DNA of 63,969 nucleotides, filler included, from Blastocystis sp. subtype 4 (lineage: Eukaryota), in NCBI RefSeq assembly GCF_000743755.1. It is 3 parts of 3 records of this genome, joined end to end, with 100 filler letters (N's around TTAATTAATTAA, not from the genome) between each part and the next. Parts side by side here need not be neighbours in the genome. Positions count along the whole stretch, not along the records: positions 1 to 25,865 come from NW_014569396.1; 2 more parts are not named here. The stretch is one strand, 5' to 3'. How positions within the stretch are numbered: the stretch's first letter is position 1; each line of letters begins with the position of its first letter. This document shows positions 2,416 through 16,828 of this stretch, one piece after another. The position numbers were made by a program, and so were the translations under genes. The notes beneath the pieces were generated by a model, which made no database searches, was not told the origin of the DNA, and saw only the letters and a program-made list of their open reading frames with translations.

Positions 2416-2880
2416 TCTATTCACAGTAAAGGAATCTAAGCCTTCATATGAAAAGTGGAAACGTGGAAACGATAATGGAATAGGACTTGGAGAAGAAGAT
2501 AGAGATAATAGTACAAAGGGAGGGCATAACTACAGTCGAAACGAGAACAAGAATCTTTGGTGAATTGCTATGTTCTGAATAGGATCTATGCATAGCCATC
2601 TATGTATGTATTTAAACAAAGTGGATGAAAGGAACAGAAAATGATAACAACTCTTCATAACACAGGTTTGTGCAATGAGAAATGCAAGTATATATGGTAC
2701 CTAATAGAGAGGATATAATTAGGGAAATAGGGACCAATTCTCCAAGTTCTAAGAACCGATGTTAATTGGATTCATCTCAAAAAGTATCTCAAAAGGAGTC
2801 GAAATAAAGGTAGGTTGAGATGAAGAGTATTTGTATTGTCGAATGTGTGTGTTTGGAAGTTCCTTGCTAACACTTTGCAG

Positions 2881-3525
2881 ATGCCACGCCCAAACAAGGA
2901 TAGAGACGAATTTGATGATGACGAGGAAGAGGAGGAGGAGGAGGAGGTCGAGGAAGTGGAAGAGGAGGAGGAAGAAGAGGAGGAAGAGGAGGAAGAGGAA
3001 GAGGAGGAAGATGACCTTGAGGAGGTTGATATCGATGAGATGGGTGTGCGTAATGAGTCTGAGGAAGAGGAGGAGGAAAGAGAAGACGTATGGAAAAATG
3101 GTCCTCATCCCGTTGACCAGGAAGTCGATCCTGAGAAATGTTACATTCATTCATACACGAAGGAAGGAGTGGGTCACTTCATTAAGAAGACCAAACTGAA
3201 GATCACTTGGGAATTGGTGATTGAAGGAGAGGAACACACGATTGCTGTTTATCACAGCCAGCTTTCTGGAAAGAAGGTGGTACTATTGGATGGAGACACA
3301 GAATATGAAGAGGAGGAGTTCTTTGATGCCGGTCTGGATTTCACGTTCCCCTTCCGTATTGAGGGCCGTGAGGTATCTGTGATCATCTCAGATGCTCTGG
3401 TTGATGGAAAGGTGGGATGGAACTATGATATTCTCATTGATGGACAATCCCTCAATGAGTTGAACGAGGAGAGATCTATGGGAGCTGGCGGCACGTATGA
3501 GGAGGATGCAGAACTCTTCGAGTAA
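2881..3525 (+). CDS. FAIM1-like domain protein with N-terminal poly-Glu tract
   Basis: ITWELVIEGEEHTIAVYHSQLSGKKVVLLDG...F.F.I...YDILIDGQSL resembles the FAIM beta-sandwich. TGTTTGTT at 3582-3589. Confidence 0.65.
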   Translation: MPRPNKDRDEFDDDEEEEEEEEVEEVEEEEEEEEEEEEEEEEEDDLEEVDIDEMGVRNESEEEEEEREDVWKNGPHPVDQEVDPEKCYIHSYTKEGVGHFIKKTKLKITWELVIEGEEHTIAVYHSQLSGKKVVLLDGDTEYEEEEFFDAGLDFTFPFRIEGREVSVIISDALVDGKVGWNYDILIDGQSLNELNEERSMGAGGTYEEDAELFE

Positions 3526-3694
3526 CTTGTTATCGCTTATTCGCGTTACTCCAATTGTATGCAATCTATATAGTACTCGATTGTTTGTTTGTACATGGTC
3601 GTTCTACTAGGAGTCATTTAAGAGGTAAAGCTAAATACTAGGATAATCACATTTGTTCTTTTAGTTAGGGAATTCGTTGATCGACTCGTATAGC

Positions 3695-6600
3695 ATGAAA
3701 GAGAGGATGATGATGTGTGCGGGAAGAATACTCCTGCTCCTTCTCTGTCTTCTATTGGTCAGCGAAGCAGGACCTAAAGGGAAAAGTAAATTCAACATAT
3801 ATGAGTGTTTTATCTATAGAAACAAATACGAGGAAGGTGAAGGGTGACGATACAGGTATCTTGGTTGTTTCGTGTCGTTCAAGCATTTAGTTGACTCAAA
3901 AGTGTATACTGCCGAAGTAGTGAGTGGCTATCCATTTGAAGACACTCTTTCTTCCAGTTCTGGTTGTTTTTCCAATGTCATAGTATTATTGCGTAGATGG
4001 CATTTTTCGTGTTCATATGGAGCCTCCCTTACTTGATTTCTCAGAGAAGGCCGTGTGTATGCAATGGGAGAGTGTATGTTCGTTCGAAATGGTGTAATTG
4101 TAGAAATTCAAAATACATAATTCAAATAAAATGACAAATTTGCGAATTCGTTCAATTGAGTTTTCGAATGAGTTGCTGTTCACCATGGTTAGCAATTATC
4201 CCAGAATTGTGAAAGCGAACTCAGAAGCAATCTTTGACATTCGTTTCATTCCTCACATTATTGGTACCATCGAGGTCACATGTACCATCACTACCAATAT
4301 TGGCGTTCTTGAATATCAAGTTGATCAATCTGGTTGATTTAATCAATAGATTACTGGGAAGGGTGTTCGGAATACCTATGGAATCTTGCCTATTCTCAAT
4401 GAACACATTCCCCGAGGTAGTGAGTATCAGCATTCTGTTGTTCTCTACAACCCAAACAAGGATAAGAAGATTGTAGTTCATCGAGTTGGAGGTTCAGATG
4501 ACCTTGATATCTTTATTTCGGCAGCTACAGAAATCGGTACATTTTATGGAATTCTATGAATTGCAGAATGGGTAGTAGATGAGCGTCGATCTGCAGAGAT
4601 ATTTAGCTTTGGATATAAGCAATCAGATCAACGTCGGTATTTTGTGAGTGTCAGATAGTCTTATGATCTCTAGGGTATGGTTCATGCTGTGACAAATGTT
4701 GCTACGTTTTTCATTCCAGTGGAAATCTATTGTGATGAAGGTTCACTAACAGCTAGACCTGCTGAATTCGCTTTAGGTTCAGTTGCTTTATCAGAGAGGC
4801 CTCTAGAATATGATTTGGAGCTTCTAAATAGTAATTCTTATCCGATCCACATCGATCGAATTGATCTACGCAGTCGACGAAGTGATTCTTCTCATATTGA
4901 AGTACGAATGGGTAATGAGACTCTACCAAGCTTTAAATATACTGTGGCGATGCGTTTATTATTCCATTGTGAAGAAGAAGGAGAGTATCGAGGTTCCTAT
5001 GTTATAACAACAGATCAGGAGAGTCCTGTTCTTCACACAATCATTATCTCATTCTCGTATAAGTTGATATTCTCTCTTTCAATTTATCTGATAGAGTATT
5101 GAATGGATCTATTGCTACAATCTCACCAATCTATTATCAAATTCCTTTGGATCTGAATACTCGAATTGTGTCAATTCCTGTGACTATGCACAATCATTAT
5201 GCAGTTCCAGTTGCAGTAACACATGTTGGAATTCCAGAAATAGCAGCTACTTTAGTTAGTATATCTGACCGAGCTGATTTTAGTCGTTTCATTGTAAATG
5301 TCTCATTTATGTTGACATTCAGATGAACTACACAGTTAGTTGTATAGCTCAACCTAATTCCGATTTTTCACCATTTTTCTTCCTCTTTCACTTATCTCGT
5401 TACCGTCCACGAAGGTATTCAAATCTCCTTGTGATTAGATTTAGTCAGAAAGGCATCTTTGCAACCACAGTTCACATTATGACAAACATCACTTCATTCG
5501 ATATAGATTTATTGGTGTTTGATGGGCTTATTGCTTCGTATCTAGGTAATGTGATTCTTAAATCACCGTACGATATGTTGATCGAAGTTCCTAATTCTAG
5601 TCAATTGGACCATGAACGTGTTATGTGGGGAACACGATTACAGCCTATTCGTTCGGCTGTTGGGAGTAGTGATGTGTATCTTAATATCGATATGGGTTAT
5701 TTTTACCCAAAGGAACATCATTATCAAACTCTTGTTCTCTATAATCGCAATCCTGTTGCTTCTCATATTCTAATCAATTCTCCTCAAGTTCCAGGCATTT
5801 CACTTACTCCAATATATCGAGCTCTTTTGACAAATCAAACACTTACTGACAATTCTTCTCAATCCAGTATACATGCGTGTTCTCTCTTACGTTTAGTGTT
5901 CACATTGCCAGCCAATTACTATCAGTTGGCTCCTTGGGAGTATCTAATCTTCCTTCTCGATGTCACTGCTGACATTCCTTCTCCTGAGCTCTCTAGCTAC
6001 CATTCACAGTCCTCCTCTATTCCTTCCATCACAACTTACAATTACTCAACTGTGATCAGTATGGAGAATGAGATTCAACGAGTTGAAATGAAATGTGGAT
6101 TTGATGCATAGTTGGACTTAGGTGTTCACTACTTATTCCTGAATGGAACACTGCTCTTTGGAAAGAATAACACAATTGATTTGAAAATTTATTTTGGTGT
6201 ATATTCCCGTGGAATTATTCATGTATAGCAAGATAAGGTATTTCATAATATTCATTATGTGAATACTCTTCAAGGATCGTTAACTGTCCAATCAGTCGAA
6301 GTATCATCTCCATACTTAGGATTCCAGTATCCTTCAATCACTTTACAGCATGATCCGATCGATCCTGAAGCTTCATTCTTCTTTGGAACTCTGTCATATG
6401 ATCCATCAGAGGAATATAAGGCTTGTAAGACGTTGTTATGTCACGTACTGCCTGCTAAACATGCATATGGAACTTCTTTGGATATGCTTCCCTCTACACC
6501 CTCAGCCACAATGCTTCAGCGTCGAGTCAAGCAGAAGAGCTTCCATGAGAAGGTAGTTGAGAGTTATGAATCAGAGACACTAGCGTAAGTGTAGGCTAAA

Positions 6601-9600: not shown

Positions 9601-10274
9601 TATAGTTATCCTTTCGCTGACCCTTATCTTCAGTCTAATCCCCGCGGTTATCATGATGGATTCAGTCGAAGTTTGTATACTGAATATGATACATTCTTGG
9701 ACTATCGAGCTCCTATTGCACATCGAGGAACACGACCATCTCTCTCGTCATCCTCGTATCGAGACCCATTGATGACAGGAGCAACCTCTAGAATGGATTT
9801 GTGGGATGACAATACTCGATTGAATGAGAGTCGAGGGTTTTTGGATCGAGATGACATTCTGGCTGATGACTATGAGGATACGCCACTGAATCTCCGGGAC
9901 CCGGATTCGTTGATATTCCCGGGATCTCGTAGCAGTTCTGTGAATTTGTATAACCCAGTTCCCTCAGTATCTCGATTTGGTAGAACTTGAAGAAGAACGT
10001 GATTTGTAGGAACTTCAGGCGAGAGGAGTCAGAGTCGTGGACGGATGGATTTGGATTTGAGTCTGGATGGAATGGGACAAGGATTAGAGTATCCAACCTA
10101 TCGATCTCCAAGTCGCATGGAATATGGTGGTAACTGTAAGTATAGATAAGAATGGTCATATGTAGTGTCCTTCCAATCTACTCAGTATCCAGATGAACGT
10201 CGGAATACTATGAATGCTCCCAATTTTGACAACTATGGATTTGATGACCCATATGCCTTTGGTCATACCTATTA
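3695..10274 (+). CDS. TMEM131-like large type I membrane protein (many exons)
   Basis: Signal-peptide-like start; Ig/PapD-like segments (LYNPLEYPVIVHL...LGPVFFHPTEFGTFSHYFVIMNNYTGLE); TM near 8000; long Lys/Pro/Ser-rich tail. Predicted poly(A)-completed stop at 10273-10274. Confidence 0.7.
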
Positions 10275-10321
10275 CTTGTGTTTGTTAAAACACTATATAG
10301 AAACAAACATACAACCTAAAG

Positions 10322-10430
10322 GACTATTAGTGACTTCGCATATTGATACAACGATTAGTCATTCTATCACACCAAAAAATCACTTGTATCTGCTCTAGTT
10401 TGAATTCTGATACAACTCGGTAGAAACAAG
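10322..10430 (-). ncRNA. Candidate box H/ACA snoRNA
   Basis: On the minus strand: hairpin (TGTTTCTA..TAGAGCA), ATACAA hinge (ANANNA), hairpin (GTGATTT..GAAGTCAC with inner TGATAGAATGA/TCGTTGTATCA), then an ATA tail. Confidence 0.45.
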
Positions 10431-10459
10431 TCTATCAGGGACTCTAGAGCGACAAAAAG

Positions 10460-10560
10460 GTGGTCAGTGATCAATGCATCCTGGCTTAATGTGCATTGAC
10501 ATGTGATCTTTCAATCGAATCATAGTCGATCATACGGGGAAAGAATTATAATCATCCCAC
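10460..10560 (-). ncRNA. Box C/D snoRNA, copy 1 (LSU CGGGGAAAGAA guide; snR190/SNORD12-like)
   Basis: Terminal GTGG/CCAC stem, C-like ATGATT, D box CTGA; guide TTCTTTCCCCG before an ATGA D' box is antisense to conserved LSU CGGGGAAAGAA. Confidence 0.75.
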
Positions 10561-10565
10561 ACAAC

Positions 10566-10628
10566 ACCATCAGGAGAATAACACAGTATAGCGATCATGA
10601 TTCACGCTTTCATATTTCATCATACAGA
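10566..10628 (-). ncRNA. Box C/D snoRNA, target unassigned
   Basis: ATGATGA (10623-10617) and CTGA (10573-10570) about 55 nt apart, lying between other snoRNAs. Confidence 0.6.
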
Positions 10629-10635
10629 TAACAAA

Positions 10636-10736
10636 GTGGTCAGTGATCAATGCATCCTGGCTTAATGTGCATTGACATGTAATCTTTCAATCGAATCATA
10701 GTCGATCATACGGGGAAAGAATTATAATCATCCCAC
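10636..10736 (-). ncRNA. Box C/D snoRNA, copy 2 (duplicate of 10460-10560)
   Basis: 101-nt direct repeat of copy 1 with one substitution (10505 g vs 10681 a). Confidence 0.75.
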
Positions 10737-10743
10737 TACACAA

Positions 10744-10822
10744 GGAAACTCAGACAAATGCCTCGAATGAAATCATGCAATGGATTATCATACTCGTCAT
10801 CTATTTCCTCATCATGGTTTCC
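10744..10822 (-). ncRNA. Double-guide box C/D snoRNA (U15/snR13 plus snR75-type sites)
   Basis: GGAAAC/GTTTCC terminal stem; C box ATGATGA; guides TAGATGACGAG-t-ATGA and CGAGGCATTTG-t-CTGA, both antisense to LSU CCAAATGCCTCGTCATCTA. Confidence 0.9.
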
Positions 10823-11097
10823 AATGCAATCCACACACCTTGTCATCCAACATACCTGTAACGAGATACTGTCATTCTCTATATGTACGTAAGCAAAAGA
10901 AATACACTATCACACAATCAAGCAATTCGAGTAGCCCACAAATGTCTATCGCACATTCCTTAGAGTAACTACTATGAAGTAGCCATCTTACACAACGGCG
11001 AATAGAAATCTCAGGTGATTCAGACTCCGCATTCACTATCAAACAAAAGGTCTGATAGAGTTGGAGTGGTGATACATTCTTTCATCCTTGATAAACA

Positions 11098-11180
11098 AGT
11101 ATCAGCAACATCTTCCTTAAATCATTTGGGCTTTGCCCATATTAAGACCGTCGTGTAGAAGATGTAACTCATCATGTACA
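11098..11180 (-). ncRNA. Box C/D snoRNA (LSU AGACCGTCGTG guide; U29/snR69/snR71 region)
   Basis: C box ATGATGA at 11175-11169, D box CTGA at 11105-11102, guide CACGACGGTCT antisense to LSU AGACCGTCGTG. Confidence 0.8.
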
Positions 11181-11257
11181 CACACAAATAGACACATTCT
11201 CACACTACATACCTGCTTATCTGGATAGCCCAGATGATATACTTCTACAAACGATTA

Positions 11258-11564
11258 GATTGTTTCCACTATGGTTTGTCCTCAATATCCATGTTGCATA
11301 GCAACTCATCCGGAATAGGAATATAGTAGCAGGGCAGGAGCAAGCTTACGCGAGCTCAACTGTCCATCAATCTAGGATCTGCTTGCTGCCTGGGACTTCA
11401 CCAAACGGTAGTCAGACTACCTTCCATGGCGTGCAAGAGCGGGAGTCACATTAAACAATATCGTCACCGCCGGATCCATGTCATGCAATCTAGGCACGAT
11501 GAGAATATACTCTACTAATTTGGACTTCATCCATAAAGATGGTCACCAAAAGAATTAATAGAAA
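11258..11564 (-). ncRNA. snR30: snR30/U17 H/ACA processing snoRNA
   Basis: Motif m1 ATATTCCTA (11324-11316), m2 AAACCAT (11277-11271) exactly 7 nt before the ACA box (11263-11261). 5' hairpin (CTATTAATT/AATTAGTAG) followed by H-like AGAGTA (11513-11508). Confidence 0.88.
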
Positions 11565-11727
11565 TCTCTTGCATGACTATTTGCGTTTCTAGTCAAATAT
11601 GATAAGAAACGAGGTTACCCATGCGACGGTTACCATTACAAATGTACACTGTCATGGAATACAAACGACTCCTCACATTTGCCTTAGGAACACGCATATA
11701 GTTTAATCCTCCGTGTACAAATCAAGA

Positions 11728-11790
11728 CATGTCAGATCAAGTCGTCATCACAAAAACTATGACTGGGGCGACAAAAGTTCATCATCAATT
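11728..11790 (-). ncRNA. Box C/D snoRNA (LSU TGACTGGGGCG guide; U31/snR67 region)
   Basis: C box ATGATGA at 11785-11779, internal TGATGA C', D box CTGA at 11735-11732; CGCCCCAGTCA is antisense to LSU TGACTGGGGCG. Confidence 0.75.
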
Positions 11791-12406
11791 ACATACAATC
11801 ACTATCACACTTACCTTCCAGGACCGCTTGAAGAAGAGACACTACAAAGAGTTAGTGTTTGCATTCTCCACACATAGAATAACCCAAAAAAGTATTCTCA
11901 AGAGGAGGATAACGCAACATTTGGTCGTCTTGCGGCTCTCAGGTACCACAAACAATTACCCGGATTCCTATAACGACAAGCGCATCACTCTTGAAAAATA
12001 ACTCACAACACTTCAAAACCAAATACATACGTATCCAAGCACCTAGAATCCTTTCTACACCTTTGGACGTTCCAGATAATCAGTTGACATCAACTAGAGT
12101 ATTCAAGAACAAAAGAAAAATGAATGGAAATCGTGGAGAGGGAATGAATTCAATGACTGATAGTAGAATCCTTATTATCAGAAAATAGTTCCCAATAATG
12201 CTGTCATCATTTTAATTTACAGGATTCCAGAAGGAGATAGAAGTCCCTAAACAAAATAATTGGAACATTGTGGTACTATAGGAATGAAGTTGAAATCCTG
12301 TAATCACATTGTATAGACAACTGGATAGAATTCGCATCTATTTCTTTTAGCAACATAAATACAAATAGATAATAGGTAGAGAAAAGTTATTGACAAATAG
12401 AAAAGA

Positions 12407-16646: not shown

Positions 16647-16719
16647 GCCTCAATAGCTCAGTCGGTAGAGCACTCGCTTAGTAAGCGAAAGGTCGGGAGT
16701 TCGATCCTCCCTTGAGGCT
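16647..16719 (+). tRNA. trnT: tRNA-Thr(AGT)
   Basis: GCCTCAA...TTGAGGCT, CTCGC-TT-AGT-AA-GCGAA, GTTCGATCC, followed by an oligo-T terminator. Confidence 0.95.
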
Positions 16720-16828
16720 TTTTTGTTTGTTTCTATTATTCATTAGAAAGAGTGAGAATCCAGTTAGCAATGTTTTTGCAGTTTTACAGTCATCCATCGT
16801 TAATCACATTTGAATCTGACTAAAGACT

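Follow-up and report, generated by a model that had tools for sequence, protein, structure and literature searches.

Non-coding hosts of the UHG/GAS5 kind and clusters of intronic snoRNAs are already known, and the locus described here is a gene of that familiar kind. The intronic clusters of rice and Drosophila (PMC2780460), Arabidopsis (PMC2875012) and Ostreococcus (PMC7671301), as presented in the available text of these papers, place several snoRNAs in one intron and need cleavage between the units, as does the arrangement that we propose. Clusters I-V of Neurospora crassa, in the accessible part of their description (PMC2780460), are spliced, contain short ORFs only and carry their snoRNAs in introns, with alternative splicing of the host and an occasional exon-encoded unit, a layout that the present locus probably shares. 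The annotation of snoRNAs in protists is thin, according to the available text of PMC11028025; the snR30 table in the accessible portion of a review includes no stramenopile member (PMC7601244), and the available text of a diatom paper (PMC4247016) does not describe snoRNA organisation. Our literature search, which lay outside most subscription journals, found no study of Blastocystis snoRNAs, nothing on polycistronic intronic clusters in stramenopiles and nothing linking a terminal exon, a branch point and an ACA box.

We analysed a stretch of 63,969 nucleotides from Blastocystis sp. subtype 4 (the window), which agrees with earlier descriptions as far as their available text goes. Blastocystis has a modal intron of 30 nt, with 39.6% G+C in subtype 4 (PMC5608401), and a poly(A) site marked by a motif four bases downstream (PMC4159000); the window has 40.2% G+C, its flanking-gene introns seen spliced are 30-32 nt in 16/16 cases, as an earlier note on this DNA had assumed, and TGTTTGTT occurs 25 times where 3.4 are expected. 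We conclude with good confidence that a locus on its minus strand yields a non-coding RNA that is spliced and polyadenylated and whose long introns likely carry about twelve snoRNAs.

A spliced, polyadenylated minus-strand transcript

The RNA evidence consists of assembled contigs from sequencing runs X1, X2, X3, X12 and X13. X1 is taken as RNA on its missing short introns and its poly(A) ends, the RNA label itself being a guess, and 6 of its 11 loose ends at the locus are listed. The locus is transcribed from the minus strand, loses three introns of 189-334 nt, is polyadenylated at 10314 and has no credible ORF, in line with the host that the earlier note had foreseen. The three introns, all GT-AG and all spliced in X1, are intron 1 (11842..12030, 189 nt, joint 11841/12031), intron 2 (11490..11814, 325 nt, joint 11489/11815) and intron 3 (10879..11212, 334 nt, joint 10878/11213). 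In X2, from a different study, a contig stops at 11213 with 10 loose letters that are the start of the next exon, which is the intron-3 junction. Unspliced X1 contigs are also present for introns 1, 2 and 3, X3 covers 10565-10828, and X12 and X13 hold short unspliced pieces only. Contig depth sums a tandem repeat and apparent paralogues and is therefore unsuited to ranking expression. The minus-strand donors (GTATGT at 12030, 11212 and 10855, GTAAGT at 11814) all lie where the earlier note had placed them, and three are used in X1, the use of 10855 being unseen in the contigs.

The host transcript (10314..12120, minus strand) shows three CT..AC joints and takes its 3' end from a poly(T) loose end in X1, the poly(A) tail following 10314 exactly four bases before its own TGTTTGTT (10302..10309, minus strand, claimed in the earlier note and located there), with the spacing given in the available text of PMC4159000. 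X1 cover ends at 12120 by depth-bin arithmetic, contigs by their nature being unable to show a start, and the span first proposed for the locus was right at the 3' end and too short at 12050, since the transcript reaches at least 12120. The 5' end of cover (12120-12100) is a pyrimidine tract, recalling 5'TOP hosts, of which U17HG is reportedly one. Within 10302-12400 the minus strand has no ATG ORF longer than 41 aa and the plus strand none longer than 90 aa; the longest ORFs of the spliced models have 11-37 aa, and the fully spliced model (174 nt) has none above 11 aa. Internal exons of the host are 27 nt, plus 23 and 32 nt if the inferred splice sites discussed below are used, and exon lengths and sequences vary among relatives, with no conserved protein-coding frame.

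On the 3' side lies a convergent plus-strand gene polyadenylated at 10274, 40 nt from the host cleavage site at 10314. The two have their own TGTTTGTT each (10279-10286 plus, 10309-10302 minus), and the relative L057, introduced below, keeps a similar convergent pair. The other neighbours are a gene with a weak PUF match, a Gcd10p gene and a tRNA-Trp (12478-12407, Rfam) on the same strand as the host. A dicistronic tRNA-snoRNA reading was rejected, since after the tRNA-Trp come a T-run and some 290 nt that X1 does not cover. Elsewhere in the window, at 16724-16731, a TGTTTGTT that overlaps the T-run terminator of a tRNA gene (16647-16719) lies five bases after that gene and on its strand. X1 contigs leave the locus for other sequence at 10563, 10802 and 11244, the edges of the Z103-like, SNOR75-like and snR30 units, one departing contig having a donor-like motif and one an upstream D box, with small indels at 10777-10787. 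These departures point to a second, paralogous host elsewhere; within the window no second copy was found.

Candidate snoRNAs and their conservation

Relatives of the locus were collected by a metagenome scan with the SNOR75 double guide (10 of 64 parts, 123 loci examined); the double guide followed by a D box gave at least 38 matches in at least 35 loci, and a Z103-like unit is present too in 5 of those 35. L077 equals the window over 4397 nt save a 25-nt insertion. L057 is 76% identical over 1.6 kb and has its units in the same order, with the Z103 duplication, the tRNA and the flanks on both sides retained. L064, L119, L063 and L127 stand further off, L063 and L064 having a different downstream gene in common. 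Conservation tracks the RNA units and the splice signals and falls in the exons. The host in L063 is reshuffled, with six donor/acceptor pairs and exons of 8, 32, 20, 27 and 13 nt; its cargo is partly different, and snR30 and Z103 each lie alone in their own intron. The synteny that the earlier note had proposed to check holds in L057, whereas L063 sits in a different gene neighbourhood; cargo and address change, therefore, and the architecture stays. L063 also holds (2474-3900, minus strand) further candidate snoRNAs absent from the window, several hairpin RNAs among them, a C/D unit at 3853 with a 10-nt guide matching 4/4 proxy LSU, and at 2893 a second C/D unit after SNOR75, followed by an internal TGTTTGTT.

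At the gathering score Rfam finds only tRNAs in the window and no snoRNA, and likewise no snoRNA in the L057 and L077 copies. The check by Rfam that had been suggested came back empty at that threshold, and below it the snoRNA matches (SNOR75, snoZ103 twice and snoU31b, with weaker snR73, snR55 and SNORA73) are all on the minus strand. The candidates are invisible to routine annotation because all of them score below Rfam thresholds. Guide targets were sought in proxy rRNAs, that is, in rDNA of unrelated eukaryotes contaminating prokaryote assemblies (7 of 17 loci scanned, 5 used), and a C/D guide was accepted if it lay between boxes C and D and its 10-21 nt ended one base before D or D'. The source assemblies (L010-L026) hold an estimated ~280 stretches with eukaryote rDNA, and two of those scanned carry group I introns; a scan of viral contigs for a proxy gave 9 chance matches and no rRNA. 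Antisense 10-mer runs to conserved LSU number 6 on the minus strand and 0 on the plus strand, against maxima of 4 in 1000 dinucleotide shuffles and 5 in 68 control tiles. Canonical C...D pairs number 4, a weaker signal that is reached by 5/1000 shuffles and 1/68 tiles.

Seven C/D units are present, the earlier note having counted six and missed one. Five of them (U31-, U35-, SNOR75- and both Z103-like) have guides of 11-12 nt to conserved LSU, as it had claimed, which match 4/4 proxy LSU and sit one base before D or D'; the D' boxes of these five are degenerate. The U31/snR67-like unit (11732..11785, minus strand, as are all units below; Rfam snoU31b E 2.7e-4) has a guide at 11773-11762 that pairs over 12 nt, with 1-2 G-U, in the four proxies, and its L057 copy matches Rfam SNORD31 (E 7.5e-4, below gathering). 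The unit at 11102..11175, presumably U35-like and also like snR73 (Rfam E 0.76 only), forms 11 Watson-Crick pairs with LSU through its guide at 11155-11145 and is kept in L057, L064 and partly L063. The unit at 11011..11085, with degenerate C and D' boxes, pairs over 11-12 nt (two G-U) with the SSU helix sequence GUGGUGGUGCAU through its 5' guide, a site that we take to be of the U33/snR55 type; its D guide pairs over 8-9 bp with LSU in 2/4 proxies, and its 3' half is invariant in the window, L057, L064 and L119. The SNOR75/snR75-like unit (10750..10815) has two 11-bp LSU guides, at 10803-10793 and 10765-10755, and scores 49.9 bits against a gathering score of 50 (E 1.2e-8). The snoZ103/SNORD12-like unit lies in two tandem copies of 96% identity, a (10640..10731, guide 10721-10711, Rfam E 9e-5) and b (10464..10555, Rfam E 1.8e-3), a duplication common to the window and L057. 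Between them is a short orphan unit of 54 nt (10570..10623) with canonical boxes, kept in L057, missing from L064 and L119 and with no good target in the proxy rRNAs. Another possible C box, at 12210 (Rfam GlsR14, E 3.7), was rejected, being outside X1 cover and not kept in L057. The C/D units resemble SNOR75 (RF02539), snoZ103 (RF00149)/SNORD12 (RF00581), snoU31b (RF01285)/SNORD31 and snR73 (RF01207) in guide sequences and box order, and differ from these families in their scores, all below gathering, and in the degeneracy of several C, C' and D' boxes.

The candidate snR30/U17 (11258..11478), already named in the earlier note, has m1 (11324-11316), m2 (11277-11271) and ACA (11263-11261) all exact against the motifs tabulated in the available text of the review (m1 AUAUUCCUA, m2 AAACCAU; PMC7601244), and as in known snR30/U17 RNAs described there m1 and m2 lie at the base of the 3' hairpin, ahead of the ACA box. 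The m1...m2...ACA order recurs in L057 (with an m1 variant), L063, L064 and L077, the window and L063 being 88% identical over 206 nt, and 11/74 predicted pairs change on both sides. Rfam SNORA73 matches the 3' part only, at 13.7 bits in the window (E 1.9) and in L077, against a gathering score of 74. In two proxy SSU rRNAs, from unrelated eukaryotes, GGAAUA and UGGUUU, which would be the complementary sites in 18S expansion segment 6, lie 27-35 nt apart. The window copy is without a 25-nt UUCG-capped hairpin between 11452 and 11451 that is present in X1 and L077, one letter apart, and that has a homologue with covariation in L057 and L063; it was more probably lost in assembly than truly deleted. 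The length here is about 245 nt, compared with about 240 in Tetrahymena and 207 in human (PMC7601244, in its accessible part).

Besides snR30 we recognise four H/ACA-like RNAs through their conservation in relatives, where the earlier note had one candidate and missed the other three. Their folds were predicted from the same alignments that were used to count pairs changing on both sides, and the counts come from two sequences each for units 1, 2 and 4 and from four for unit 3. On these predicted folds and both-side changes, units 1, 3 and 4 have the hairpin-hinge-hairpin-ACA form; the H boxes are mostly degenerate in the alignments relative to the canonical ANANNA, and AT-rich DNA has many A[CT]A triplets. 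Unit 1 (11853..11980; two hairpins, ACA 11858-11856) is kept in L057, with 3/33 predicted pairs changing on both sides and an ambiguous pocket search. Unit 2 (11503..11718; up to three hairpins, AUA box 11508-11506), an orphan of tentative class, has conserved blocks in L057, a less clear fold with 4/42 such pairs and no convincing pocket target in the proxy rRNAs. In unit 3 (10881..11001; two hairpins, ACA 10886-10884) 9/25 predicted pairs change on both sides, and the 5' pocket fits SSU CCCUU[U]GUACACA over 6+4 bp, the best match in 2/3 SSU proxies and the second in the third, at a site that we assume to be of the SNORA70 type. Unit 4 (10322..10450; two hairpins, AUA box 10327-10325, ACA in L057) is an orphan with 7/28 such pairs between the window and L057 and no convincing target in the proxy rRNAs.

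Inferred splice sites and the predicted last exon

Introns seen spliced contain 6/12 units, which upholds for these the earlier claim that long introns hold polycistronic snoRNAs; snR30 and the last five units are still attached in the transcripts seen, and their intronic position rests on conserved inferred sites. A second branch-point and acceptor motif at 11245 would make intron 2 570 nt long with snR30 included, and a predicted intron 4 (10316..10855, 540 nt, minus strand) would leave a last exon of 2 nt (10315-10314). Both intron-2 acceptors, 11490 and 11245, are kept in L057, the latter also in L063, L064 and L127, and the position of donor 10855 is conserved in L057, L064 and L119. For intron 1 the acceptor is kept in L057 and the donor shifted. 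In the X1 and X2 contigs and their listed loose ends there is no joint from donor 10855 or into acceptors 11245 or 10316; X1 contigs run unbroken across 10749-10880 and 10314-10489, and an X2 contig continues from the spliced intron-3 junction through 11245 into snR30.

These contigs could mean that introns 1-3 are the only ones routinely spliced and that snR30 and the last five units are exonic, cut directly from the polyadenylated RNA as in plant-type polycistronic precursors, an arrangement that we think rather unlikely. The sole joint observed for intron 2 uses 11490, upstream of snR30, neither the window nor L057 offers a GT donor from there to snR30, contigs are unbroken over 10855 and 10444 to the poly(A) tail, and an exon-encoded snoRNA is described in a Neurospora cluster, in the accessible part of PMC2780460. 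However, divergent relatives retain donor 10855 as well as the acceptors at 11245 and 10316, snR30 and Z103 have introns of their own in L063, neither poly(A) selection nor contig assembly would keep a 174-nt RNA that closes with 2 nt and a poly(A) tail, and the loose ends bearing on the question are the 6/11 listed for X1. Intronic and exonic routes of release may coexist. Past acceptor 11490, where the window (11489-11478) has no GT donor ahead of snR30, L063 has one after an 8-nt exon, and a GCATGA kept in the window and in L057 (2268-2290) could be a GC donor after a micro-exon of 3 nt (window) or 12 nt (L057). An acceptor at 10444 was rejected, being without a branch point, within H/ACA-like unit 4 and not conserved. 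A small plus-strand protein (the 90-aa ORF from 11729) or a chance set of snoRNA-like motifs is very improbable: that ORF aligns to L057 without a stop (42% over 69 aa), the cluster in L057 contains an antisense ORF of 170 aa, and on the plus strand a loose end resembling poly(A) follows 12120, but the ends of all three joints at the locus are those of the minus strand, stop codons in relatives interrupt the other ORFs, the guide count is above all shuffles and tiles, and the run at 12120 adjoins a genomic A-rich tract on what depth arithmetic makes a spliced minus-strand contig and is more simply read as oligo-dT mispriming.

If the whole set lies in introns of one spliced host, as we prefer, its last exon is predicted to be two bases long. 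A branch-point motif and YAG end 5-7 nt before TGTTTG(T/G)T in the window (AG at 10316), L057, L063 and L064, a layout that persists in the four though the last snoRNA differs, and that with a 4-base motif spacing gives predicted last exons of 2, 1, 2 and 3 nt, respectively. It is found at 1/25 window motifs, the host's own (0/24 others), and at 1/3 in L063; the 643 nt of L119 contain no such motif. The absence of a product with a 2-nt last exon from the contigs is weak evidence because it would be a short tip in an assembly graph. All 5 window acceptors directly follow an H/ACA-like RNA, its ACA or AUA being about 10 nt or less from the branch motif. The pattern is no more than a tendency, since in L063 and L064 it is a C/D unit that closes the last intron. 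We put forward, as an evenly balanced proposition, that the host has shed nearly all 3' exon sequence: its last 3' splice site would lie 1-3 nt from the cleavage site in four divergent lineages, the poly(A) tail serving as last exon, and as H/ACA boxes lie against or across the branch points, the same 20 nt would be contested by splicing, 3' cleavage and snoRNP assembly, a competition that could meter snoRNA output via intron retention. Such an exon would be the non-coding counterpart of the stop codons made by polyadenylation in this lineage. If real, it would be a natural test of the minimum length of a terminal exon and of the sequence in which cleavage, polyadenylation and removal of the last intron take place.

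Proposed maturation and comparison with known hosts

We propose that the host is transcribed by RNA polymerase II, as the available text on known snoRNA biology suggests (PMC11028025, PMC7601244), and that the fourth intron (10855-10316) and the alternative acceptor at 11245 together put every unit inside an intron. Each intron would contain one to five RNAs, C/D units first and H/ACA-like last, the ACA or AUA lying no more than about 10 nt from the branch point. After debranching of the lariats, cleavage would separate the units and exonucleases would trim them to protein-protected ends, and the spliced remnant of about 174 nt would be a by-product. The snoRNAs are predicted to methylate and pseudouridylate rRNA, with snR30 aiding 18S processing. 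A dedicated host with long introns is the likely solution because ordinary 30-nt introns cannot hold such RNAs, and a genome with 30-nt introns would in this way still use intronic snoRNA expression. The locus yields about twelve snoRNA candidates at once, the essential snR30 included.

The comparison with known hosts, as described in the available text of the papers cited, sets the locus beside three of them. Mammalian U17HG is also non-coding and has U17 in an intron (PMC7601244), where snR30 would be placed here by an inferred acceptor; unlike U17HG, the present host is common to about eleven other snoRNAs, and the H box of its snR30 is AGAUUG. The Arabidopsis intronic clusters lie in protein-coding genes (PMC2875012), whereas the host here is non-coding, in a genome whose ordinary introns are about 30 nt. 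The Neurospora clusters are C/D only (PMC2780460), whereas here both C/D and H/ACA-like units occur together, as many as five in one predicted intron, the exons measure 8-32 nt and the last exon is predicted to have 1-3 nt. Relative to these systems the novelty lies in the lineage, in a load of about twelve units of mixed class and in a last exon predicted to be nearly absent.
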